This document shows positions 1,271-50,399 of a stretch of 64,000 bases of DNA, piece by piece. Numbering within the stretch: position 1 is the first letter of the stretch; the number at the start of each line of letters is the position of its first letter. This DNA comes from Candidatus Levyibacteriota bacterium (GTDB lineage Bacteria; Patescibacteriota; Microgenomatia; Levybacterales; GWA1-39-11): the NCBI GenBank assembly GCA_050255815.1, contig JBLMVJ010000035.1:10727-74726 (forward strand), read 5' to 3'. The notes beneath the pieces were generated by a model that did not search any database, had not been told where the DNA came from, and saw nothing but the letters and a program-made list of their open reading frames with translations. Made by a program: the position numbers and the translations under genes.

Positions 1271-3373
1271 ATGGGAAATAATTCAACCATTATTCTTCTT
1301 AAGAAAATATCTGTTTGGGTACTTTCTTTTGTACTATTCTTCTTCCCTCTTCTCTTTTTAGTAAACGCAACTGATCCATTCCTTTTGCCAAAACAGGTAT
1401 TCCTGGTTATGGCATCTGTAGTCCTGCTGATCCTTTGGAGCGTTATCATGGTCTTTGAAAAAAAGATTATGATCCGGACCAGTCCGTTTAATCTTCCGGC
1501 AGGACTCTTTACTTTAGCAGTACTTATTTCAGCATTCCTCTCCCGGAATATGTATGATTCACTTGCTCTTGCTATTCCGGTGTTGGCTTCTTTCATACTG
1601 TATTTTGTGGCACAAAACACCATATCAAATAAAAAGGATTTACTGTTTGTCTTATCTGCTCTTCTTTTGGGAGGAGCCGTGTCTTCCCTTATCTCAGTTT
1701 TGTACTACCTGAAGATTTACTTCCTTCCTATTCCGGCAATCCAAAGCCAGTACTTCACTACCTTTGGTTCTCCTATCCAGCACATTATTTATATAGTACC
1801 GCTTTTGATTGTTGCCGCCTACTTCCTGTCTAAAGAAGTGAGAGGGAGAAAACCTGAAGCAAACTACAATACTATATTATTTGGCGGACTTACCGGCACC
1901 CTTCTCATCTCTGCCGTCCTCTTAATAGTACAGGTAGTAACTGCACCACAAAAACCACTCTTACTGCCATACACATTTGGCTTCCAGATTGCTACCGCAG
2001 CTATTTCCCAGGACACCACACGCTTCTTAATTAGCCTGCCGTTTGGGTCCGGATTTGGCACATTCTTATCAGACTTTACCAGGTTTAAACTTCCTGATAT
2101 CAATAATGGCCAGCTTTGGGCTGCATCCTTTAGCACTTCTTCTTCTTTTGTCCTGGAGCTTTTAACCACCGTAGGAGTAGTAGGACTTTTAACCTACTTA
2201 TTTATGATTGCCAAGGTATTAAAGAATAGGACAAAAGACACCACCCCATTATTCTTTGCACTGTTAGTAGTGTTCTTAGTCTCATTCTTCCTGCCGCTTT
2301 CTATCATCTCCCTTACCCTTATCTTTATTTTAATGGCGCTGTTTACCAGCACTTTATTCCTGGACCACAGCAAAAATGTATATGATATAAGCCTTTCTAT
2401 AGTAGCTCTAAAACATGGCCTATTCTCTATAGAGGAAACGTCAGGCGCACCTAAGAAAGCTTCAGAATCTTCAAAGGTGCTTCCGATTATTGTAGCGCTG
2501 GTTATCATTCTGGTTGGCGGGTATACCGGGTATCTCTCATTCAAACTCTTGTCTGCAGACATGAAGATGGCAGACTCTTTGTCACAAAGCAAGAGGAACA
2601 ACGGCCAGGCTATTTATGACCTCCAGAGACAGGCGCTCATAGACTTCCCGTACCGCTCTGATTATTACAGGATCTTCTCCCAGATTAACCTGGCTCTTGC
2701 TAACTCTATAGCCGGTGCTGTCCCACAGGGATCTACCCCTTCCACTACGGCACAGGCAACTATTACGCAATTGCTGCAGCAAAGTATTGCAAACGGCAGG
2801 ACTGCAGTAGCCCTGGCTCCTATGAGCTCAGTAAACTGGGAAAACCTTTCCCAAATCTATAGGAGCTTAATAGGGGTAGGACAAAATGCGGGAGAATTTT
2901 CAGTGGCAACCATGAACCAGGCTATCATTTTAGATCCTTCCAACCCACTCCTGAGGGTAGAATTAGGGGGTATCTACTACCAGCTGCAGCAGTATGACGC
3001 AGCCCAAAACCAATTCCAGATTGCAATTAACCTGAAGCCTGACTTTGCAAATGCATACTACAACCTGGGCCATGCTCTTGAAGCAAAAGGAGATCTGAGA
3101 GGTGCAATAACCGCATACCAGGCAGCACAAAGCCTTACCACCAATGATAATGATAAAAAGAGGTTGGATTCTGAAATGGAAGTTATCCTGAAAAAAATTG
3201 GGACAGAGGTAAAACCGGGCACTCAGCCATCAGCAGCTGCTCCATCTGCAGACCAACCACCACTTGGAATAAGTACACCTTCAGCACAACTGCCTAGCCA
3301 AAAAGACCAGGTAAAATTACCTTCACCACCAACTGAAACTCAACCAACAGCCACACCTAAAACTACGAAATAA
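1271..3373 (+). CDS. polytopic membrane protein, O-antigen-ligase/polymerase-like, with C-terminal TPR repeats and a Pro/Thr/Gln-rich tail
   Basis: About 12 predicted TM segments. TPR-like block AQNQFQIAINLKPDFANAYYNLGHALEAKGDLRGAITAYQ. The listed ORF starts at TTG 1235; ATG 1271 is preferred. The O-antigen-ligase assignment comes from architecture only. Confidence 0.6.
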   Translation: MGNNSTIILLKKISVWVLSFVLFFFPLLFLVNATDPFLLPKQVFLVMASVVLLILWSVIMVFEKKIMIRTSPFNLPAGLFTLAVLISAFLSRNMYDSLALAIPVLASFILYFVAQNTISNKKDLLFVLSALLLGGAVSSLISVLYYLKIYFLPIPAIQSQYFTTFGSPIQHIIYIVPLLIVAAYFLSKEVRGRKPEANYNTILFGGLTGTLLISAVLLIVQVVTAPQKPLLLPYTFGFQIATAAISQDTTRFLISLPFGSGFGTFLSDFTRFKLPDINNGQLWAASFSTSSSFVLELLTTVGVVGLLTYLFMIAKVLKNRTKDTTPLFFALLVVFLVSFFLPLSIISLTLIFILMALFTSTLFLDHSKNVYDISLSIVALKHGLFSIEETSGAPKKASESSKVLPIIVALVIILVGGYTGYLSFKLLSADMKMADSLSQSKRNNGQAIYDLQRQALIDFPYRSDYYRIFSQINLALANSIAGAVPQGSTPSTTAQATITQLLQQSIANGRTAVALAPMSSVNWENLSQIYRSLIGVGQNAGEFSVATMNQAIILDPSNPLLRVELGGIYYQLQQYDAAQNQFQIAINLKPDFANAYYNLGHALEAKGDLRGAITAYQAAQSLTTNDNDKKRLDSEMEVILKKIGTEVKPGTQPSAAAPSADQPPLGISTPSAQLPSQKDQVKLPSPPTETQPTATPKTTK

Positions 3374-3375
3374 GT

Positions 3376-5523
3376 ATGGAAAGTAAAGATGTGCCGTCAA
3401 TAGTATCAAAGCTGCAGATAGGCGTGTTGTGCACCATGCTGGTATTATTCCCCTTAGCATTTATTCCTAACTCCACTGACTCATTTACCATGGGTAAGAG
3501 CCTAATCCTCATACTGGGGACTTCCCTTCTTATCCTGTTGTGGGCAATTGCATCTATATATAAGAAAGGCTTTGTCTATAAATCCAGCCCATTTAACCTT
3601 CCGGTTGCCCTTTTTGGCGTAGTGGTACTTATTTCCTCCCTGCTCTCCCGCAATATGTATGATTCTCTTGTTGCAGCTGTTCCCGTAGTCTTCTCTTGCG
3701 TATTGTACTTTACCATTTCTTATATGATAAGCAGCAGAAAAACACTTATTTTAGCTATTACCAGCCTTATTGCCGGCGGCGCACTGACTGCCCTTTTAAG
3801 TACCGCTTACTATCTGAAACTTTATTTCCTGCCTATTCCGGGTATTAATAACCAGTACTTTTCCCCGTTTGGGTCAGGCGTACAGGAAGCAATTTACCTG
3901 ATTGCCCTTCTCATGTTCCCGCTTTTCTCCCTATTAAGACAAACAAAGACCAGAAAGCTTACGGTTACGCAGGATTTCCTCATTGAAGCAGGTTTGGGAG
4001 GCGCACTTTTGATAGGGGTAATCTTTATTACCCTTTCCATCATTACTTCCCCAACCAAACCTATTATATTGCCATACACATATGGCTTGCAGATTGCAGC
4101 CGCTACTATTAGCCAGGATATCTCGCGCCTCTTTATCTCATTCCCATTTGGATCCGGCTTTGGCACGTTCTTAAATGACTTTGCCCGCTTCAGACTGCAG
4201 GAGCTGAACGCAAACACTACGTTTGCTACCGCCTACCCATCCTATTCATCATCTTTTGCCCTGGAGCTGATGACTACCACCGGCATCTTAGGCATCCTTT
4301 CTTACCTCTTTATAGTGTTTAAGGCCTTAAAAACCCGCATGAAAGACAGCAATCCATCTTACTTTGGCCTGGTTATCTTATTTATTGTCTCATTCTTCTT
4401 ACCGTTTGGCCTTCCAACTATTGCACTGGTCTTTATTCTTTTGGGAGTCTATTCATCATCCTTATTCCTGGCAAATGACAGGCGGGTACATAATACCAGC
4501 CTCTCACTGGTTGCCTTTGACCAGGGAATTATTTCTACAGAGGATGTGTTGAGGAATGAGCGGGTTAAGTCTGAGAGTATTATCCTGCCGGTTCTTATCA
4601 CTATCTTAGTGGTACTAATAGGAGGATTTGCTTCATTTATGATGGTACGCCTGGTAGATGCAGACACCAAAATGGTTTCCTCTTTGGTTGTACCTGCCGG
4701 TAAGAAGCTCACCATCCAGCAGCAATATGACTTGCAAAGAAATGCGGTAAATGAATTCCCTTATAAATCAGACTACCAGAGGACATTCTCCCAGCTTAAT
4801 ATGAACCTGGCTAACTCTATTGCTGCCAGCCTGCCAAAAGGCGCTACCCCATCAGCAGTTGTACAGCAAAGCGTCAACCAGCTCTTACAGCAATCAGTAA
4901 ATTCAGCCAGAAGCGCTGCTGATATAGCACCGCTTACTTCAACCAACTGGTCCAATCTGGCACAAATTTACCGGAACCTGATAGGCGTGGGCCAGGGAGC
5001 TGACCAGTTTGCCATTGCAGCCATGAACCAGGCAACACTGTTAGACCCAACCAATCCATTCTTAAGGCTGGACTACGGTGGTATTTATTACCAGTTAAGC
5101 CAGCTGGATGCAGCCCAAAACCAATTCCAGATTGCCATTAACCTGAAGCCTGACTTTGCTAATGCCTATTACAATCTGGGCCATGTGATAGAGTCCAAAG
5201 GAGACCTTTCTACCGCACTTTCTCTCTACCAGACTACCCTTTCCCTGGCCGGAAACAATCCAACAGATAAAAAGAAACTCAGTGATGAAATAGAAGCATT
5301 GAAGAAAAAGATTAATGAAACAGCAGCTACTCAACAGCAGCAGACACCGGTAAACCTGCAGACCAGCGCAGGCCAGCAGCAACCTATTGGCATTAACGCT
5401 CCTTCAGCTCAATTTCCAGCACCTAGCAGGCCGGTAAAACTTCCTCCACCTCCTGGTGCCAGCGCTTCTCCGGAACCGTCTCCTTCGGCTGCTCCCAGGC
5501 CTACGGCCACCCCCACACAATAA
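3376..5523 (+). CDS. paralog of the preceding gene (polytopic membrane protein plus TPR and a Pro-rich tail)
   Basis: Collinear similarity to the 1271-3373 product along its whole length. The ATG lies 3 nt after the upstream stop. Confidence 0.6.
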   Translation: MESKDVPSIVSKLQIGVLCTMLVLFPLAFIPNSTDSFTMGKSLILILGTSLLILLWAIASIYKKGFVYKSSPFNLPVALFGVVVLISSLLSRNMYDSLVAAVPVVFSCVLYFTISYMISSRKTLILAITSLIAGGALTALLSTAYYLKLYFLPIPGINNQYFSPFGSGVQEAIYLIALLMFPLFSLLRQTKTRKLTVTQDFLIEAGLGGALLIGVIFITLSIITSPTKPIILPYTYGLQIAAATISQDISRLFISFPFGSGFGTFLNDFARFRLQELNANTTFATAYPSYSSSFALELMTTTGILGILSYLFIVFKALKTRMKDSNPSYFGLVILFIVSFFLPFGLPTIALVFILLGVYSSSLFLANDRRVHNTSLSLVAFDQGIISTEDVLRNERVKSESIILPVLITILVVLIGGFASFMMVRLVDADTKMVSSLVVPAGKKLTIQQQYDLQRNAVNEFPYKSDYQRTFSQLNMNLANSIAASLPKGATPSAVVQQSVNQLLQQSVNSARSAADIAPLTSTNWSNLAQIYRNLIGVGQGADQFAIAAMNQATLLDPTNPFLRLDYGGIYYQLSQLDAAQNQFQIAINLKPDFANAYYNLGHVIESKGDLSTALSLYQTTLSLAGNNPTDKKKLSDEIEALKKKINETAATQQQQTPVNLQTSAGQQQPIGINAPSAQFPAPSRPVKLPPPPGASASPEPSPSAAPRPTATPTQ

Positions 5524-20039: not shown

Positions 20040-21434
20040 TTAGGAAAGTTTGCTAACCAGAGGTAATAATCCCTTTGCAGTTTCCATGGTCACGGCTTTA
20101 AACCCAAACTTCTTTGCCTCCTTGATACGTTTTTCCAGGTTCATAACCTTCTTAATCTCTCCCAACAGGCCTACCTCTGCTATGGCAGCAGTTTTAGCAA
20201 GCGATTTTCCTTTCAGGGAGCTTATGATAGACAGGCACACTGCCAGGTCTGAAGCCGGCTCTGATATCTTAAAGCCACCTACTACATTTACGTACACATC
20301 ATACTTATCCAGCGGCAGCTTTCCATGTTTCTGCAGGATAGCCAGCAAGAGTTCCAGGCGTTTCTCTGAAACACCGTTTGCAACGCGGCGGGGAAAAGCC
20401 AGGCTGGAATGGATTACTAATGCTTGTATCTCTACTAAAATAGGTCTGCTCCCCTCCATGATAACTGCTACACAAGAACCGGGGGAAGCAACAGAGTCAC
20501 CCATGAACAATTCAGACAAGTCTGTAATTTGTTTAAGGCCATATTCTTCCATACCAAATATTCCCACCTCTGAGGTATCCCCAAACCTGTTTTTAAATGC
20601 CCGTAGAATACGCACTCCGGTCATTTTCTCTCCTTCCAGGTATAACACGGTATCAACCATATGGGACAACATCATAGGGCCTGCCACCATCCCTTCCTTA
20701 GTCACATGGCCTATGAGAAAAACCGGGGTGTGAGTAGTCTTTGCAAAAGCTACAAGCCTACCCGTAGCATGGCGCACCTGGGGAATAGAACCTGCATAAC
20801 CGGGGACGTCCCCACTCTCCATAGTCTGGATTGAGTCAATGATCAGCAGGTCAAAGTGTTCTTGCTGTGCCTGCTCCAGGGCTAAATCTATGTCTGAGGT
20901 AGCTAAGATAAATAAATTTTCCGAGTTAGTTTTCCTGTCTTTTTGCAGCCTTTGTGCCCGGAGAGTAACTTGCGCTTCAGATTCTTCACCGGTAACATAC
21001 AGTATCTTGCGGGTGGCGGGTAGCGAGTGGCTTGTAGTTTTCTCACCACCTGCTACGTGCCCTTTGCTATCTGCCAGGTTAAGCGCCGTCTGTAAAAGTA
21101 TTGTTGACTTACCAACCCCCGGATCTCCTGAAAGTAAGACTACGGAACCGGGGACAATCCCGGCTCTGGCCTCCTCCCCCAAAACTCTATCAAACTCTGA
21201 GAACCCCGTAGAAAACCGCTCTACCAAATTTACTTTCACATCACTTATCCTGGTCGGCTTTGCTGAGGAAACGAATTTGGAACTGTGACTCTTTGCCCCT
21301 CTGCCCCTCTGACTCTCAGAAGTCTTAAACTCTTTCATGGTATTCCATTCCCCACACTCCGGGCATTTTCCGTACCATTTTTGCGAGTCGTATCCGCAAC
21401 TACTGCAGACGAATGAAATATTAGTTTTAGACAT
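20040..21434 (-). CDS. radA: DNA repair protein RadA/Sms
   Basis: N-terminal zinc ribbon CSSCGYDSQKWYGKCPECGEWNT, Walker A GDPGVGKST, KNRFG motif, and a Lon-like C-terminus. Confidence 0.9.
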   Translation of the reverse strand: MSKTNISFVCSSCGYDSQKWYGKCPECGEWNTMKEFKTSESQRGRGAKSHSSKFVSSAKPTRISDVKVNLVERFSTGFSEFDRVLGEEARAGIVPGSVVLLSGDPGVGKSTILLQTALNLADSKGHVAGGEKTTSHSLPATRKILYVTGEESEAQVTLRAQRLQKDRKTNSENLFILATSDIDLALEQAQQEHFDLLIIDSIQTMESGDVPGYAGSIPQVRHATGRLVAFAKTTHTPVFLIGHVTKEGMVAGPMMLSHMVDTVLYLEGEKMTGVRILRAFKNRFGDTSEVGIFGMEEYGLKQITDLSELFMGDSVASPGSCVAVIMEGSRPILVEIQALVIHSSLAFPRRVANGVSEKRLELLLAILQKHGKLPLDKYDVYVNVVGGFKISEPASDLAVCLSIISSLKGKSLAKTAAIAEVGLLGEIKKVMNLEKRIKEAKKFGFKAVTMETAKGLLPLVSKLS

Positions 21435-33598: not shown

Positions 33599-33719
33599 GT
33601 CCTGGCCTTGACCTATCTTCCCATGTTGTGTAACAACAAAGTATTGTGAGCGCTGACGTGTTTCACTTCTCTGTTCGGAATGGGAAGAGGTGGGACCACA
33701 TCGCTCTAAAGACCAAGAC
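33599..33719 (-). rRNA. rrf: 5S rRNA
   Basis: The reverse complement reads TCTTGGTC...GGTCCCACCTCTTCCCATTCCGAACAGAGAAGTGAAAC...GGCCAGGA, with helix I pairing between the termini. Confidence 0.85.
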
Positions 33720-34000
33720 TCAAGAGCAAAACCGGTAAGATCCGAATCTACTCGAATAGTTTGGGGTAACTTCTAGGCTACCCCATTCTTCTCGAATATT
33801 TCGAATTAACATTAACAAACACTAGCGCATTCGAATTGATTCGATTTAAATTCGAACCATTCGAGAATGATTTCTTAGAATCCACGCTATTTGGATCGAC
33901 CTATTAGTACAACTTCGCTGAAACAGTTACCTGTCTTACACGTGTTGCCTATCAACCTGATGGTCTCTCAGGGGTCTAAAAGAGATCTTATCTTAGGGTG

Positions 34001-34033
<33 letters not shown>

Positions 34034-34268
34034 CATGGAAATCTAGCTACCCAGCAGTGCACTTGTAAGTACAACTGGCACACCAGGGATTTCCTCACCC
34101 CAGTCCTCTCGTACTAGGGGCGACTCCCTTCAAATCTCAAACGGTTGTCCTGGATAGAGTCCGAACTGTCTTACGACGTTCTTAACCCAGCTCGCGTACC
34201 TTTTTAACTGGCGAACAGCCAGACGCTTGGGAGCTTCTCCACCCCCGCGCTAAGATGAGCCGACATCG

Positions 34269-34698
34269 CTGTCAATCCAATCAGTAATTAAGAAAGACTT
34301 AAAAACTTAAAACTGATGGTGATACTCTTGTTACCAAGAGCCTCTGACTATACCTTCATCCGCCAACTGGCGGAGCTAGTCGTATGATACAGATTATAAA
34401 TTTCTCTTTATGAGATGAATCCATATCTCACCCTCTCACCTATGCTGGTGAGGGGTTCAGTCGATAGGGTCCAAAAGAAATTTAAAATTCAGAAGTTAAA
34501 ATTCAGAATTAAATTCTTAATTCTGAAATCTGAATTCTTAACTCTATTTGAACCTCGGTATTACCCTCTTGTGTTCAGAAAGTAGGGTTTCACCGATTTG
34601 GACTAGTTATTTAAATTATTAGTACCTTGTTTTTTGACTCAAATACTAATAAATACAGGCAAGAGTATTACTACTCAGGCGCCCCGATATTTTCATAT
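34269..34698 (-). mobile_element. group I-type intron (430 nt, no ORF) after the E. coli U2500 equivalent
   Basis: Exon junction is GGCACCU | CGAUGUCGGCUC. The 5' exon ends in U and the intron ends in G. GATGAAGGTATAGTC (reverse complement of 34346-34360) resembles the group I J8/7-P7 core. Confidence 0.7.
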
Positions 34699-34742
34699 AA
34701 GGTGCCAAACCGCATCGTCGCTGTGGACGCTTGGATGCGATC

Positions 34743-34775
<33 letters not shown>

Positions 34776-35230
34776 AAGCTACGTCCCAACCACTAAGGAA
34801 CGCAGGATCACTAACACCTGCTTTCGCACCTGCTCGACTTGTAGGTCTCGCAGTCAAGCTGGCTTGTGCGTTTGCACAATACGCTCCGATTTCCGTCCGG
34901 AGTTAGCCAACCTTTGTACGCCTCCGTTGCACTTTAGGAGGCAACCTCCCCAGTTAAACTGCCCACCAGACACTGTCTTTTAGCCGTATTTTTATGCGGC
35001 ATTAAAGTAATGCTCACTCATCTTAAAGAGAGGTATTTCATTGATGACCGAAGTCTCCCTCCTATACTAAACAGTTAAAATAAGCTTGCAAATGTCAAGC
35101 TACAGTAAAGCTCCCGGGGTCTTTTTGTCCTAGGACAACCAGGCCGCGTCTTCACAGCCATCTCAATTTCGCCGTGTAAATGTTCAAGACAGTTACTCAG
35201 TCGTTCTACCTTTCGTGCGGGTCGGAACTC

Positions 35231-35548
35231 CATTGTTTTAATGTTCCAACATGGAACCTCACAGTCGCCTGTGAGATCGGACTATATCTTTCCCTTACCA
35301 AATTGGTGAGGGATCTAGCGTCTAGTCTCTGAGGGTTTTCCGATAAATCGGAATCTTCCCTGCTGATTGGCTCCACCAAGCAGATTTTTACTCTTACGAG
35401 TACTGTTGGATACTGAGCTGTTCCAGCAAATAGCTAGATTTTACACTCATTTAGGTTAACGATTGTGTTCTTACGTGACTGTTTTGCTTGTTCCTGATGT
35501 GTATCCCGATTAGATCGGGACTCGGGCAAGTTGATTTGACCCAAACCA
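35231..35548 (-). mobile_element. group I-type intron (~318 nt, no ORF) after the E. coli U1951 equivalent
   Basis: Exon junction is UCCUUGUCGGGU | (G)AGUUCCGACC. The 5' exon ends in U and the intron ends in G. AAGATATAGTCC (reverse complement of 35279-35290) and GAGACTAGACG core-like motifs are present. Confidence 0.65.
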
Positions 35549-36885
35549 ACCCGACAAGGAACTTCGCTACCATAGAACAGTTATAGTTACTGCTGCCGTT
35601 CACCGGAGCTTTAGAAAGCGGCTCCACCTTGCGGTTTCACCACCCACTATTGACTTACCGGCACTGGGCAGGTGTCAGCCCCTATACGTTACCTTTCGGT
35701 TTTGCAGGGACCTGTGTTTTAGATAAACAGTCGCTAAGTAATCTTTTGCTTAACCTGGATGTTACTCCAGGCAGGGCATCTCCCATAGGTTACGCCCAGC
35801 TTTTGTTGCCGAGTTCCTTGAACATTTGTCTCACGGTCGCCTTAGTCTACTCGACCAATCCACCTGTGTCGGTTATGCGGTACGGCAAAATATAGCACTC
35901 CTCACGAATCTTTTCCTGAAGACTGAAACTTACGATCCTCACCCTACTTTCTTGCGATTTCAGATTTGCATTCGCCACTTAATTAAACACTTTGACGGAT
36001 TTGCCCATCAAAACTATCTTATGGCTTGGACCCTGTTTACAGGGCGATCCTTTCCACTCTTGTCCATCCTTGAGTAATAACGCACTATACTCTGTAGCAG
36101 AATATTAACTGCTTGTCCATCCGGCTACCCCGCGCTTTATGACGGGCCACCGTTAGGAGCCGACTAACGCTGCGCTGACTTACATTGCGCAGCAAACCTT
36201 GGATTTTCGGCGGACGCCGTTCTCAGGCGTCATTCGCTACTCATGCCGGCATTCTCACTTGTAAACGCTCCACCATACCTTACAGTACAGCTTCGCTGCA
36301 TTTACGACGCTCCCCTACCACTTGCTCCGATAAATCGGAGTCAAATCTCCATCGTCGGTATTAAGCTTAATCCTCGATCATTTCCGGCGCCATTCTCCAA
36401 TGTCGACTAGTGAGCTGTTACGCTTTCTTTAAAGGATGGCTGCTTCTGAGCCAACCTCCTAGCTGTCTATGGAAAATGACTTCCTTATCAACTTAGCTTA
36501 AATTTAGAGACCTTAGATGGGAGTCTGGGCTGTTTCCCTTTAGACCCACGAGCTTAGCCCCGCAAGTCTGACTCTCTATTAAGTTTTTACGGTATTCGGA
36601 GTTTGATTGATCCTGAAAAGTTGCCTCTCCAGAGACCATTCAGTGCTCTACCCCCGTAAAAACATACAAAAGGCTATACCAAAATATATTTCGGGGAGAA
36701 CCAGCTATCTCCAGGTTCGTTTAGTATGTCACCCCTTACCACAAGTCGTCTCAGATCATTGCTGCGATCACGAGTTCGGGCCTTCCTCATCCTTTCGAAC
36801 AAGTTCACCCTGCTCATGGTAAGCTCACCTGGTTTCGGGTCTTTTGCAATGCGCATTTAGGTATCCCAGTTAGAGATCGCTTTCA

Positions 36886-36992
36886 CTATGCCTCCCCCCT
36901 CACCTTTCCAACGAAAATTCCAACCTTTGTTTTAAATCGAGCTTGTTTCGATAATATTTCAAAGTGGTAATCCTCATTAGAATGGTGAGGGG
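36886..36992 (-). other. 107-nt stem-closed expansion/insertion in the 23S domain II helix-25 region
   Basis: Closed by cccctcacc (36886-36894) pairing with ggtgagggg (36984-36992). Absent from the E. coli and B. subtilis sequence as I recall it. Confidence 0.5.
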
Positions 36993-37360
36993 TTAGACTG
37001 CGCAATACAAAAACTCACCGGCTCATTCTTCAATAGGCACGACGTTATACCCTTGCGGGCACTTCGTCTGCTTGTTAGCTAATAGTTTCAGTAACTCTTT
37101 CATTCCCCTCCCGGGGTGCTTTTCACCTTTCCCTCGCGGTACTAGTTCACTATCGGTAGATGTTGATATTTAGCTTTGGAGCGTGGTCGCCCCGGCTTCC
37201 CACAGGGTTTAATCGTACCCCATGGTACTCAGGAACAGGCAAGAAGTGAAAATCATTTCAAATACGGGACTATCACCCTCTTTGGTCTCTTTTTCCAAAA
37301 CGTTCTTCTATGATTTCCATTTGTGACTTCTTTTGCATTTAAGCAAGCCGTCCTACAACC

Positions 37361-37660
37361 CCCCTCACCTTTTTATCACTAACCTTTTTAAAAGTTCTTG
37401 CCAAGCTTTTGCGCGCTTCTTAAGCGCCTGCTCTCTTCTAAAAGCTAATTTATAAGAAGTATATGCTTCATAATAAATAAGCTCCCATGGCAAAAACTTT
37501 TTAGTATATATAGACTTTCCTTTATTATGGTCCGTAAATCGAGTTTTAAGATCTTTTGTTGAACCAATATAAAACTGGTCGAACTTTACACTCTTAAGAA
37601 TATACGTGTAGAACATAAGTCTATTATAGTTATTTAAGTTAGGAACAAAAAGGTGAGGGG
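37361..37660 (-). mobile_element. 300-nt stem-closed intervening sequence in 23S domain I carrying a GIY-YIG ORF
   Basis: Perfect 10-bp closing stem: cccctcacct (37361-37370) with aggtgagggg (37651-37660). It replaces the short hairpin that follows ...CAGCYCAAACC in other bacteria. Confidence 0.6.
37365..37616 (-). CDS. small GIY-YIG (URI-domain, COG2827/YhbQ-like) nuclease encoded inside the 23S insertion
   Basis: MFYTYILKS...FYIGSTKDLKTRFTDHN...E...ALKREQALKK pattern. Same orientation as the rRNA. The stop codon lies within the closing stem. Confidence 0.8.
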   Translation of the reverse strand: MFYTYILKSVKFDQFYIGSTKDLKTRFTDHNKGKSIYTKKFLPWELIYYEAYTSYKLAFRREQALKKRAKAWQELLKRLVIKR

Positions 37661-38003
37661 TTTGAGCTGTTCCGCGTTCGCTCGCCGCTACTGACGGAAT
37701 CTCTGTGATTTCTTTTCCTCGGACTACTTAGATGTTTCAGTTGGTCCGGTATCCCGCCGACTACTAATATATTAATCTTGCGACTAATAACTTCATAGCA
37801 GGCTCCCAGTTAAACTGGGGGGTTTCCCCATTCGGACACCACCGGATCATAATGTCTTCGGCCATTCCCCGGTGATTTTCGCGAGCCAGATGCGTCCTTC
37901 TTCGGTCAACACCTCCTAGGCATCCACTATTAGCATGAATCAAATAGCGTAGATTCTAAAAAACCAATTCATTAAAAACCATGCCTCGGCTTGAAACATG
38001 GAA

Positions 38004-38028
38004 AATCCGCCACCCGGCGGATTTTTTT
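38004..38028. terminator. GC hairpin with flanking A/T runs in the tRNA-Ala to 23S spacer
   Basis: aatccgcc-accc-ggcggatt followed by T7 on the plus strand, and by TTTTCC on the minus strand. Confidence 0.35.
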
Positions 38029-38222
38029 AATCCTCCGTCCCGATTAGATCGGGACTTCGGCCTAGTTGTTTGTTTGTAATTCTTCCAATTATTAATGAGC
38101 AAAACGCTTTTTGCGTTGCCCTCGGATGTAATCCGAGGCCATATCTCTCCTGTACTCGTTTCTCGCCGGGAAGTATATTGCCCTTCCACCAGCGAGGAAC
38201 CAATACAAGAAAACTAAAAAAG

Positions 38223-38295
38223 TGGACCCAAGGAGATTTGAACTCCTGACCTCGTCATTGCAAATGACGCGCTCTACCAGCTAAGCTATGGGCCC
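38223..38295 (-). tRNA. tRNA-Ala (anticodon UGC)
   Basis: The reverse complement GGGCCCATAGCTTAGCTGGTAGAGCGCGTCATTTGCAATGACGAGGTCAGGAGTTCAAATCTCCTTGGGTCCA folds as a cloverleaf with G3:U70. CCA is not encoded. Confidence 0.95.
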
Positions 38296-48626: not shown

Positions 48627-50399
48627 TTATTTCTTTTGCGCTTTGAAGATTTCTTCTACTTCTTGCAGGGTGGTTGCGTCTTCCGGCTTTTTGTCATCCC
48701 TAAATTTTTCTAACCTGGGAAACCGCAAAGCATAGCCCGGCACATCTACGTCAAATGCTGACCCTGATTTGGAAGGCTTCATACTGCGTCCTGCGGTATG
48801 CACGGGGGATCGGGTCAACTCATCAGCCTTAATTTCTACCACTATTTCCGGGTTTACCCACACATCCGGCTCCAGCCATTTATCTACTTCAAACAGTACT
48901 GGCTTGTGGCTTGCCTTAATCCTCTCTGCCCTCCTGTGCAGCTCTTTCCATTCTTCATCAGTCAGTCCGGTTCCCACCTTTGCTATAGTTTCAAATTTAT
49001 CCTGTTTCTCATTGTAAATCCCTATCAAAAACGCTCCTATCCCAAAAGACGTCCGCTTTCCCCGTCCTGAATAATACCCCATGACTACACAGTCCACCGT
49101 GTCTTCCAGTTTTGACTGGTATGACCGTTTCAGCTTTATCCAATTCCAGCCCCTGGCGCCCGCCTGATACGTACCGTCTAGTTTTTTAGCCAGGATTCCC
49201 TCCAACCCCCGGGAAATGGCATCATCAAAAAAGTTTTCTATTTCTTTTGCATCCCCCAGAACCTGCTCTTCTGCCTGATAGATAGTCTTTCCTTCTTTAA
49301 TGATTCTAGAAACTGCCTTCCTGCGGTCTTTATATGCTTCAGGGATATAATTTTTTCCATTCAGGTACAGCAGGTCAAAAACCATCAGCTTCAGGGGAAT
49401 CTTTTTTGCCATTTCTTCTATGTCATACTTCCGCTTTCTTTGGGCGGTCAGCTGGAACGGAAGATATTCATTTGTTTCCGGATTGTAGGCAATTGCTTCC
49501 CCCTCCAGAATCACTTCATCCGCATCTATTTGGGAGACCAGCCCTTCCTCTACATCCGGGTACATAAAGGTAACCTCTTCAAGATTTCGCGTGAATAGCT
49601 TTACTCTAAACCCTTTCCCCTTTTCCCTCTTCAGGTGCGCCTGTAGCCTAAATCCGTCAAATTTTGGCTCTATAGCGCATTCCCCTATCTTATCTACAAT
49701 TTCCTGCCCTGAAGAAAGACGCTCTGCGCGGGCCATAAGGATGGGGGTAAAAACTGATGGCTTTATATGTGATAAGCCCTTCAAGCCATCCTCTTTTATA
49801 GTTTTTCCTATTATTCCCAAATCAGGCCGGATGTTATATGCCCGCTCAATTTCCGGTCTGGCTTTCTTATCTTTCCCCAGCATCCAGGATAAAGAATCCA
49901 GAACGGTCATATCAGAAAAGCCCAGGCGGAGCTTTGCCACCGGAATCCTGGAAACAAATCTGCGGGATAACGGATCTAAATCCTGCAAAAGCTCTGCCAT
50001 AAGACCTATTTTTTTCTCTACAGAACCCGCTCCTCCACTTTCTGCAACCTGCCTCAACACTTCAAACACCTGGGAAACCGTACCATCTCTTCCCATTTTT
50101 GTTCCCCCCAGGCTTTGGGCTATCTCACCCAAATCCCCAACTTTTTTATATTCTGCTGCAGCTTTTTCATCTGAAACAGCAAAAGCCTGGGCTATAGCTC
50201 TTACCATCATCTTGTCAGCCATCCCAAACTCTAACGGTTCAAAAAGCGGCGCTACCCTTCCCTGCAAAAGATACATTACTTTATCAAAAACGTCCGCCGG
50301 CACTTTTTCAAAAAGTTCTGAGAGAATGAGAATCATGTCATTGCGGGAAGCAGTGTTTTCCAGTTTTTCTAAATGGATTGATAGCTCTGAGAATTTCAT
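48627..50399 (-). CDS. lig: ATP-dependent DNA ligase (Lig1/archaeal-type, DBD + adenylation + OB)
   Basis: Motif I EPKFDGFR, EGEAI, EGILAK, WIKLK and an OB domain. 590 aa. Confidence 0.88.
   Translation of the reverse strand: MKFSELSIHLEKLENTASRNDMILILSELFEKVPADVFDKVMYLLQGRVAPLFEPLEFGMADKMMVRAIAQAFAVSDEKAAAEYKKVGDLGEIAQSLGGTKMGRDGTVSQVFEVLRQVAESGGAGSVEKKIGLMAELLQDLDPLSRRFVSRIPVAKLRLGFSDMTVLDSLSWMLGKDKKARPEIERAYNIRPDLGIIGKTIKEDGLKGLSHIKPSVFTPILMARAERLSSGQEIVDKIGECAIEPKFDGFRLQAHLKREKGKGFRVKLFTRNLEEVTFMYPDVEEGLVSQIDADEVILEGEAIAYNPETNEYLPFQLTAQRKRKYDIEEMAKKIPLKLMVFDLLYLNGKNYIPEAYKDRRKAVSRIIKEGKTIYQAEEQVLGDAKEIENFFDDAISRGLEGILAKKLDGTYQAGARGWNWIKLKRSYQSKLEDTVDCVVMGYYSGRGKRTSFGIGAFLIGIYNEKQDKFETIAKVGTGLTDEEWKELHRRAERIKASHKPVLFEVDKWLEPDVWVNPEIVVEIKADELTRSPVHTAGRSMKPSKSGSAFDVDVPGYALRFPRLEKFRDDKKPEDATTLQEVEEIFKAQKK

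Follow-up and report, generated by a model that had tools for sequence, protein, structure and literature searches.

The 23S rRNA gene of this Candidatus Levyibacteriota contig is interrupted, within helix 71, by 318 nucleotides that have no counterpart in the rRNA of Escherichia coli. The locus raises the question of what this insertion is, whether it could be removed from the transcript, and how it has been maintained. A sequence-only reading had proposed an ORF-less group I intron following the equivalent of U1951. Here, we assess that proposal in the window, i.e., the whole 64,000-nucleotide stretch of DNA analysed, and in related sequences from genomes and metagenomes.

Host gene and boundaries of the insertion

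The host gene lies on the minus strand of the window, at 33883-37949. It scores 2126 bits with the Rfam model LSU_rRNA_bacteria and covers model positions 1-2925; that is, it is full length. Its span of 4067 nt, compared with a 2925-position model, implies about 1.1 kb of insertions. In addition to the insert of interest, the gene contains a second intron, at L2500 (34269-34699), and two insertions in domains I-II that are not introns, of approximately 281 nt and 89 nt. Rfam searches place a tRNA-Ala(UGC) gene upstream and a 5S gene downstream of the 23S gene, and found no 16S gene in the 64-kb window. By taxonomy, Candidatus Levyibacteriota is a phylum in the Microgenomates group of Patescibacteria (CPR). 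The host was identified through RadA, encoded on the minus strand at 20040-21434: an NCBI entry under the name Candidatus Levyibacteriota matches this protein with 100% identity, and the next-best matches of RadA are from Levybacteria and Patescibacteria.

In minus-strand orientation, the 5' exon has ...GGUAGCGAAGUUCCUUGUCGGGU at its end, the intron extends from UGGUUUGGGUC to AAAACAAUG, and the 3' exon begins with GAGUUCCGACCCGCACG. In a MAFFT alignment with E. coli 23S rRNA, the insert appears as one gap-free insertion of 318 nt, at window positions 35548..35231, right after U1951. The E. coli reference copy lacks 1 nt upstream of position 1911; the numbering was calibrated on U1911, U1915, U1917, U1939, C1962, A2058 and the sarcin-ricin loop, each landmark being given its standard E. 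coli position. The curated Rfam LSU model provides a placement independent of the MAFFT alignment. In this model the loop of helix 71 (H71) has 4 positions, and the window has 322 nt there, i.e., 318 extra, between ...UUGUCGGGU and UCCGACC.... Because the two alignments agree, the coordinates and the U1951 assignment made from the sequence alone are correct, and the Rfam boundaries coincide with them exactly. Direct reading also upholds the earlier statement that the 5' exon ends in U (U35549) and the insert in G (G35231). Intron base i thus corresponds to window position 35549 - i.

Because U is the first base of the intron and G that of the 3' exon, both splice sites are formally shiftable by one base. 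They are fixed by four features, namely P1 with its U·G pair, P10, a 2-bp P9.0, and the terminal G. With boundaries shifted by one base (exon ...UU, intron ...GG), U21 would take the place of G22 opposite the splice-site U, and P9.0 would be lost; the shift is also ruled out by relatives with an A or a G as the first intron base, which set the exon end at U1951. The first base of the 3' exon, G35230, is the equivalent of position 1952, which is A in E. coli. A G at this exon position is also found in the metagenome contigs L040, L064, L097 and L153, where it is unambiguous because their introns start with A.

Group I fold and its covariation support

The type of the insert was assessed with the Rfam covariance model RF00028 (Intron_gpI). 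The model aligns over its full length (positions 1-253) to 35258-35526 of the minus strand, with 80.5 bits against a gathering threshold of 50 and an E-value of 7e-19 for the whole window, and a chance match is thus excluded. The group I type, previously proposed from core motifs, is borne out by this result. Of these motifs, AAGATATAGTCC (35290..35279) corresponds to J8/7-P7' and GAGACTAGACG (35329..35319) to J6/7-P7, and the two agree with the RF00028 consensus. The hairpins described at the same time can also be assigned: the one of CCCTYACC type is P8 (35312..35292), and the two of CCGAT type are P2 (35520..35504) and P6a (within 35360..35333). All three fold in isolation. The complete set of elements is listed in Table 1.

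Table 1. Elements of the L1951 insert and its flanking exons (window coordinates; nt, intron numbering)
Element	Window position	Strand	Basis
Whole group I intron, 318 nt	35231..35548	minus	MAFFT alignment with E. coli 23S; Rfam LSU model; RF00028
P1, 5' exon strand UCGGGU	35549..35554	minus	direct reading; RNAalifold; family alignment
Internal guide sequence, P1 3' strand GCCCGA, nt 22-27	35522..35527	minus	reading; RNAalifold; family alignment
P10 part of guide, AACUU, nt 17-21	35528..35532	minus	pairs with 3' exon GAGUU
P10, 3' exon strand GAGUU	35226..35230	minus	direct reading; E. coli alignment; family alignment
P2 hairpin UCCCGAU-CUA-AUCGGGA, nt 29-45	35504..35520	minus	isolated fold -8.5 kcal/mol, z -2.6
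P2.1 region, nt 47-106	35443..35502	minus	homology to relatives, read from alignments
P3 5' strand AUCUAGC, nt 110-116	35433..35439	minus	pairs with 35313-35319
P3 3' strand GCUAGAU, nt 230-236	35313..35319	minus	RNAalifold; family alignment
P4 5' strand UGCUGG, nt 121-126	35423..35428	minus	pairs with 35361-35366
P4 3' strand UCAGCA, nt 183-188	35361..35366	minus	family alignment
P5 (GCUC/GAGC) around P5a, A-rich bulge AAAAU, and P5b with GUAA tetraloop	35370..35418	minus	family alignment; isolated fold z -3.55
P6 (GGG/CCC) and P6a (UUCCGA-UUUA-UCGGAA), nt 189-216	35333..35360	minus	family alignment; isolated fold
P7 5' strand G-(A bulge)-GACUA, within GAGACUAGACG	35323..35329	minus	family alignment
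P7 3' strand UAGUCC	35279..35284	minus	family alignment
P8 hairpin CCCUCACCA-AUU-UGGUAAGGG, nt 237-257	35292..35312	minus	isolated fold -8.5 kcal/mol
J8/7 AAAGAUA, conserved catalytic-core joiner	35285..35291	minus	matches RF00028 consensus AAGAUAUAGUC
P9 hairpin CUCACAG-GCGA-CUGUGAG, nt 274-291	35258..35275	minus	family alignment
P9.1 hairpin GUUCC-AUGUU-GGAAC, nt 292-306	35243..35257	minus	isolated fold
3' end AUG, including omega G35231 (nt 318)	35231..35233	minus	direct reading; relatives

Two alignments were used to evaluate this fold. In the first, the five closest sequences were analysed with RNAalifold, which recovers P1, P3, P4, P5, P5a, P5b, P6, P6a, P8 and P9; 25 pairs keep pairing through double changes. 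The second, referred to as the family alignment, comprises 23 sequences (the present intron and 22 relatives) and a structure that includes the P7 pseudoknot and P10. In this alignment 80.5% of the cells are paired, compared with 34-43% when the partners are slid by 1-3 columns. Double changes occur at 45 pairs, and none of 500 shuffles reaches any of these measures. Covariation supports P3, P5, P5a, P6, P7 and P9, and with them the P3/P7 pseudoknot and the conserved P3-P9 core. The family-wide paired percentages are low for P2, P2.1, P8 and P6a, because MAFFT misregistered these variable hairpins, which were judged instead by direct reading and isolated folds.

At the splice sites, U35549 is the U of the U·G wobble, with G35527 as its partner. 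P1, UCGGGU/GCCCGA, is paired in 5 of 5 sequences analysed with RNAalifold and shows no variation among the 21 distinct family members. The P10 segment AACUU lies directly 5' of the P1 guide, and 91% of the P10 cells are paired across the family alignment. P9.0 consists of A272-U317 and U273-A316 (A272 and U273 being 35277-35276). In the close relatives, on contigs L124, L095, L119, L156 and L138, a J7/9 of GAU goes with an intron end ...AUG, and GAA with ...UUG.

In the core, P3 shows compensatory changes across the family, and P4 is 100% paired and nearly invariant. P5 (nt 131-134 with 176-179) is also 100% paired, with three of its four pairs covarying, and encloses P5a, the A-rich bulge and P5b (nt 140-173); P5a is 92% paired, and all seven of its pairs covary. 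In P6, 100% of the cells are paired and one pair covaries, and the isolated P6/P6a fold is marginally above shuffles (z -1.4). P7 is formed by G220, the bulged A221 and nt 222-226 with nt 265-270; it is 99% paired in 21 sequences, with an exchange of A-U for U-A at the last pair. By analogy with Tetrahymena, in which G264-C311 is the guanosine-binding pair, the G-C pair 35327/35280 in P7 would be the one that binds guanosine. J8/7 is nearly invariant in the family, and P8 shows compensatory changes among the five closest sequences (RNAalifold). P9 is 100% paired, six of its seven pairs covary, and its GCGA tetraloop is invariant across the family.

As isolated hairpins, P2, P5ab, P8 and P9/P9.1 fold better than shuffles, P9 together with P9.1 reaching -16.2 kcal/mol (z -4.05). 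P2.1 is the least certain element of the structure: its proximal stem, ACAC(A)UCA/UGAGUGU, was assigned by homology to CACUNN/NNAGUG of the relatives, and its distal part is poorly structured, the isolated fold being no better than shuffles (z +0.55). In all 22 relatives, inspection by eye shows a GNRA-capped P2 in the same place, of differing sequence. The present copy alone has no GNRA tetraloop on P2, which is closed by CUA. Because of this loss, folding may be impaired or protein-dependent; together with the weak P2.1, it may leave this copy with a reduced autonomy.

The intron resembles subgroup IC (Tetrahymena/Azoarcus-like) in several features, namely the J6/7-P7 and J8/7 sequences, the presence of P2 plus P2.1, the A-rich bulge of P5a with a GNRA L5b, and the GNRA L9. 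By analogy with Tetrahymena and Azoarcus, the GCGA loop L9 docking on P5 and the GUAA loop L5b docking on P6a are likely tertiary clamps. Two further pairings were considered. RNAalifold proposed one between a conserved AGGAA after P2.1 and GUUCC of the 3' exon, which was not adopted; the sequence from contig L095 breaks the pairing, and covariation cannot be shown because the 3' exon does not vary there. P10 might also extend into a second segment, in which UGGGUC would pair with GACCCG of the exon; its 6 bp compare with 4.2 in shuffles, the nearest relatives do not have it, and it is kept as a possibility only.

Relatives, coding capacity and inheritance

Relatives were sought in two ways. 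A scan of species-representative genomes for the core motif yielded 37 loci, which, when mapped on E. coli 23S, are mostly at other sites of the gene, namely L2593, L1931, L2604 and L2500. Because the same motif pair occurs at several 23S sites, and in both CPR and non-CPR bacteria, it marks a widespread ribozyme type and not the L1951 site. A metagenome scan with a pattern comprising the 5' exon and the guide, TTCCTTGTCGGGT-N5-35-ACTTGCCC, matched at least 120 contigs; this is a lower bound, and the family counts below come from a biased sample because the scan required the ACTTGCCC guide. Complete introns, defined as the span between GGGU and NAGUUCCGAC, were obtained from at least 104 contigs. 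Among the matches listed, all 104 complete L1951 introns end in G, and their lengths are 240-1013 nt.

There are at least two core classes at this site. Among the matches listed, the larger class accounts for about 58 of the 104 complete introns and has the core GUAACGACU...GUAUAGUCU. The class of the present intron, with the core UGCUGGAA...AAUCAGCAGG...AGAGACUA...GAUAUAGUCC, has about 22 members among these matches. Its closest relatives there are the introns of contigs L124 (271 nt) and L095 (316 nt), each 77% identical to it over approximately 180 nt. The introns of L156, L095, L119 and L124 pass the RF00028 threshold on their own, and the relatives score 58-85 bits, compared with 80.5 for the present intron. 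The ORF-less introns of L124, L095, L119, L156 and L138 are like the present one in site, guide, P3-P9 core and GCGA L9 loop. They differ in having a GNRA-capped P2, extensions of P2.1, P6 and P9 that are shorter or longer, and A instead of G at exon position 1952. The L2500 intron of the same gene was rejected as a paralogue; it shares just motif matches of 9-14 nt with the present intron and has a different core class. Introns that share AGACUAGACG...AAGAUAUAGUC are found at L1931 (L020, L034), L2500 (L019), L2593 (L004, L012, L025 and others) and L2604 (L039), several of them in non-CPR bacteria (Gammaproteobacteria, Bacteroidota). Those at L1931 are 69-71% identical to the present intron over a core of about 180 nt. 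Since these insertion sites differ, so do the guide sequences.

The ORFs overlapping the intron are 50-58 aa long, the longest available, and have no Pfam match. A LAGLIDADG profile built from 23 endonucleases of L1951 introns detected no similar sequence in the six frames of the whole window (best E-value 0.5). The ORF-less character proposed from the sequence thus holds. Among the 104 complete introns in the matches listed, an ORF of at least 130 aa is present in 57 of the 70 introns of at least 600 nt and in none of the 34 shorter ones; two such ORFs that were scanned are LAGLIDADG_1 (E-values 5e-26 and 5e-31). Most of the ORF-bearing L1951 introns among the matches listed have the core GUAACGACU...GUAUAGUCU, unlike the present intron, which belongs to the minority ORF-less class and not to the LAGLIDADG-bearing majority class. 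In the longer members of its own class, the longest ORFs do not exceed 128 aa, and two that were scanned are without a significant Pfam match; the length of these members is due to peripheral RNA insertions rather than evident endonuclease genes. Without a homing-endonuclease gene, the intron cannot home by itself.

How, then, has the intron been maintained? Among the matches listed, L124 and L095 come nearest to it in the flanking 23S exons, and these are the same contigs that carry the most similar introns. We extended this comparison to the 82 contigs among these matches that have 300 nt of downstream exon. In 69 of the 82, the contig nearest in exon sequence has an intron of the same class; 34 such cases would be expected, and 1000 shuffles yield 54 at most. 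Within the intron's own class, the distances between intron cores and between exons are correlated (Spearman 0.67; 0 of 2000 Mantel permutations), a result based on the 300 nt of exon adjoining the intron, to which co-conversion during homing could contribute. Because the divergence of the intron tracks that of the host 23S rRNA, these data suggest that inheritance is mainly vertical. Persistence by vertical inheritance within a Microgenomates-type lineage is most likely.

Proposed splicing, alternative explanations and significance

Taken as a whole, the locus is best explained by a bona fide group I intron in the H71 loop, after U1951 of the Candidatus Levyibacteriota 23S rRNA, that is spliced and has been kept vertically; we regard this explanation as highly probable. 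The analysis shows its position, fold, splice-site pairings, conservation and covariation, its ORF-less state, and its co-divergence with the rRNA of the host, and from these we infer splicing of the present copy by standard group I chemistry. In this mechanism, the guide AACUU-GCCCGA would pair with the 5' exon end UCGGGU to form P1, in which the U·G pair marks the cleavage site. The G-C pair of P7 would hold an external guanosine, which would then attack the splice site at U35549. Subsequently, the terminal G35231, placed by the 2-bp P9.0, would replace the bound guanosine while P10 holds the 3' exon GAGUU, and exon joining would produce UCGGGU-GAGUUCC. The ligated exon, UCGGGU-GAGU-UCCGAC, would restore helix 71, with G at position 1952. 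Helix 71 sits at the ribosomal subunit interface, where it presumably could not tolerate 318 extra bases.

This last consideration bears on the main alternative, namely that the insert is a decaying, catalytically dead remnant, deprived of its endonuclease gene and of some tertiary contacts, that is either left unremoved or dependent on a host or trans-encoded maturase. The absence of an ORF, a P2 devoid of the GNRA loop seen in 22 of 22 relatives, and a P2.1 fold no better than shuffles would all be in line with decay. The core is nevertheless intact, from P1 with its U·G pair through P3-P9, J8/7, and the P7 G-C pair with its bulged A, to the L9 GCGA loop, P9.0, terminal G and P10, and the RF00028 score of 80.5 bits is as high as those of the relatives (58-85). 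Moreover, 318 unremoved nucleotides in H71 should be strongly deleterious, given the established structure of the ribosome, and this is apparently the sole 23S gene in the window. We consider a dead remnant improbable.

Still less probable, and only marginally credible, is a classical bacterial intervening sequence, which would be excised by RNase III with no ligation of the exons and leave a fragmented 23S rRNA. Such sequences are classically located in helices 9, 25 and 45, and the present site is helix 71. It is true that domains I-II of the same gene hold non-intron insertions (about 281 nt and about 89 nt), and that CPR 23S genes have such insertions at known intervening-sequence sites (PMC11270868). 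The insert itself, however, fits the group I covariance model, its group I helices covary, and in the minimum free-energy fold its ends do not pair together into an RNase III stem. An artefact of assembly or binning, in which an intron-bearing rRNA fragment of another organism was joined into the contig, is to be considered insofar as rRNA operons are notoriously difficult in metagenome assembly. Against this, both exons are in one continuous full-length 23S gene (model positions 1-2925), which is flanked by tRNA-Ala and 5S genes in the same order as in the relative L095; exon and intron similarity indicate the same relatives; and the same junction is found in independent contigs from many samples. 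We deem an artefact just as implausible as an intervening sequence, and retain a spliced, vertically kept group I intron as our preferred explanation.

Comparison with known systems indicates how much of this is precedented. The L1951 intron of Coxiella burnetii, reportedly described by Raghavan et al. in 2007, is like the present element in being of group I type at this bacterial 23S insertion site, when compared by published description. It is unlike it in having a homing-endonuclease gene and more than twice the length, i.e., 720 nt with a LAGLIDADG ORF of 157 aa (PMC1995217). L1951 had rightly been named a known bacterial group I site with reference to Coxiella (PMC1995217), and the position 1952 reported for CPR bacteria is the same site (PMC11270868). 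Defined by its site, the class of L1951 introns also includes members from organelles; an intron-encoded LAGLIDADG endonuclease is typical of the class but not obligatory. In the survey of CPR rRNA by Tsurumaki et al. 2024, group I introns make up 45% of 968 23S insertions, position 1952 (site 23IS8) is among the frequent, LAGLIDADG_1-rich insertion sites, and the insertions are described as removed from transcripts (PMC11270868). The present intron is like the 23IS8 introns in host group, gene, site (after U1951, before 1952) and detection by Rfam Intron_gpI, and in being part of a multi-insertion 23S gene typical of CPR. The survey stresses the LAGLIDADG_1 genes at that site, unlike the present copy, which has no ORF (PMC11270868). 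One supplementary file of the survey contains no match to Levybacteria, 1951 or 1952 (PMC11270868). Group I introns in tRNA genes of Patescibacteria, mostly without endonuclease genes, self-splice in vitro (PMC13011429). The present element is a further ORF-less representative of the described class of CPR L1951 introns; site, ribozyme type, host group and ORF-less state are all precedented, and no new question is opened.

In practical terms, this Levybacteria MAG calls for an exon-intron-exon annotation of its 23S gene, and the intron is to be removed before the rRNA is used in phylogeny, probe design or ribosome modelling. The locus adds one well-delimited, covariation-supported case to the known abundance of CPR rRNA introns, and the 23-sequence family provides material for splicing assays or subgroup classification.

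A broader interpretation joins these results, and we put it forward tentatively, at slightly less than an even chance. At CPR L1951 there would be at least two core classes without evident core similarity; the present intron would be of the ORF-less kind with Tetrahymena/Azoarcus-like motifs, would have co-diverged with the host rRNA, and would further have lost the GNRA loop of P2. If this is true, the intron would be a long-term, vertically inherited resident and not a recently homed element, and the loss of the P2 GNRA loop would imply either that the peripheral clamp has been rewired or that the intron depends on a host factor.

P2 cap and a possible second P10 segment

The 318-nt, ORF-less group I intron at the L1951 site of the window was compared with 22 metagenome L1951 introns of the same core class. 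In all 22 of these relatives, helix P2 is capped by a GNRA tetraloop, namely GAAA, GCAA, GUAA or GGAA (family alignment A2, columns 43-62; loci L045-L156). The window copy is the sole exception; its P2 (35504-35520) consists of 7 bp closed by a CUA triloop.

Near the 5' end of the window intron, nucleotides 6-11 (UGGGUC; 35538-35543, minus strand) can pair with GACCCG in the 3' exon, at +8 to +13 (35217-35222, minus strand). This pairing comprises 6 bp, compared with 4.2 in shuffled sequences, and is a possible second P10 segment. At the same place, many L1951 introns carry GGUCG or GUCGGAA, i.e., motifs complementary to the 3' strand of helix 71; these motifs are missing from the nearest relatives of the window intron.

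Further insertions in the 23S gene and its surroundings

The same 23S gene contains a second intron-like insertion, after the U2500 equivalent, as well as two insertions in domains I-II (table). The core of the U2500 insertion reads GGUGAAACCC...GGGUAAUACCGAGG...AUCGACUGA...GAAGGUAUAGUCAGAGG, and belongs to a different class from that of the L1951 intron; against the Rfam Intron_gpI model it scores 24.4 bits, under the gathering threshold. We considered whether this insertion is a paralogue of the L1951 intron, and rejected this notion, as the motif matches common to the two span only 9-14 nt. Both domain I-II insertions lack an intron signature, and may be IVS-type (intervening sequence) expansions, resembling those reported for CPR bacteria (PMC11270868).

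Coordinates of the rRNA locus, the 23S insertions and the L019 23S gene
Feature	Length	Position	Strand	Remark
rRNA locus	 	window 33600-38295	minus	order tRNA-Ala(UGC) - 23S - 5S
U2500 insertion	431 nt	window 34269-34699	minus	after U2500 equivalent; last base G
Domain I-II insertion	~281 nt	window ~37368-37648	minus	Rfam LSU model position ~285
Domain I-II insertion	~89 nt	window ~36899-36987	minus	Rfam LSU model position ~655
L019 23S gene	 	about 1700-4060 of JBBABB010000003.1	 	Candidatus Paceibacterota MAG

No 16S gene was found within the whole 64-kb window. The tRNA-23S-5S order is identical in L095, a related contig. Elsewhere in the window, 48627-50399 (minus strand) encodes a DNA ligase of the ATP-dependent type, which comprises N, adenylation and C domains; this gene has no relation to the intron.

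The L1951 site in other genomes and metagenomes

Another 23S gene with several insertions is that of L019. Its L1951 intron (240 nt, ORF-less) has a mixed-looking core, in which the P3-P6 region is IA/IB-like, yet the motifs AGAGACUACACG...GAAGAUAUAGUCC are also present. The P7 and J8/7 motifs of its L2500 intron are those of the window L1951 intron, and an additional large insertion lies near position 2263.

The L1951 site is very often occupied, namely in at least 120 metagenome contigs (loci L040-L159), by introns of at least two unrelated core classes. Among the matches listed, 57 of the 70 L1951 introns of 600 nt or longer contain an ORF of about 150 aa; both such ORFs that were scanned are LAGLIDADG_1. 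Also among the matches listed, intron class follows the similarity of the host 23S, with 69 of 82 nearest neighbours matching in class, against 34 expected.
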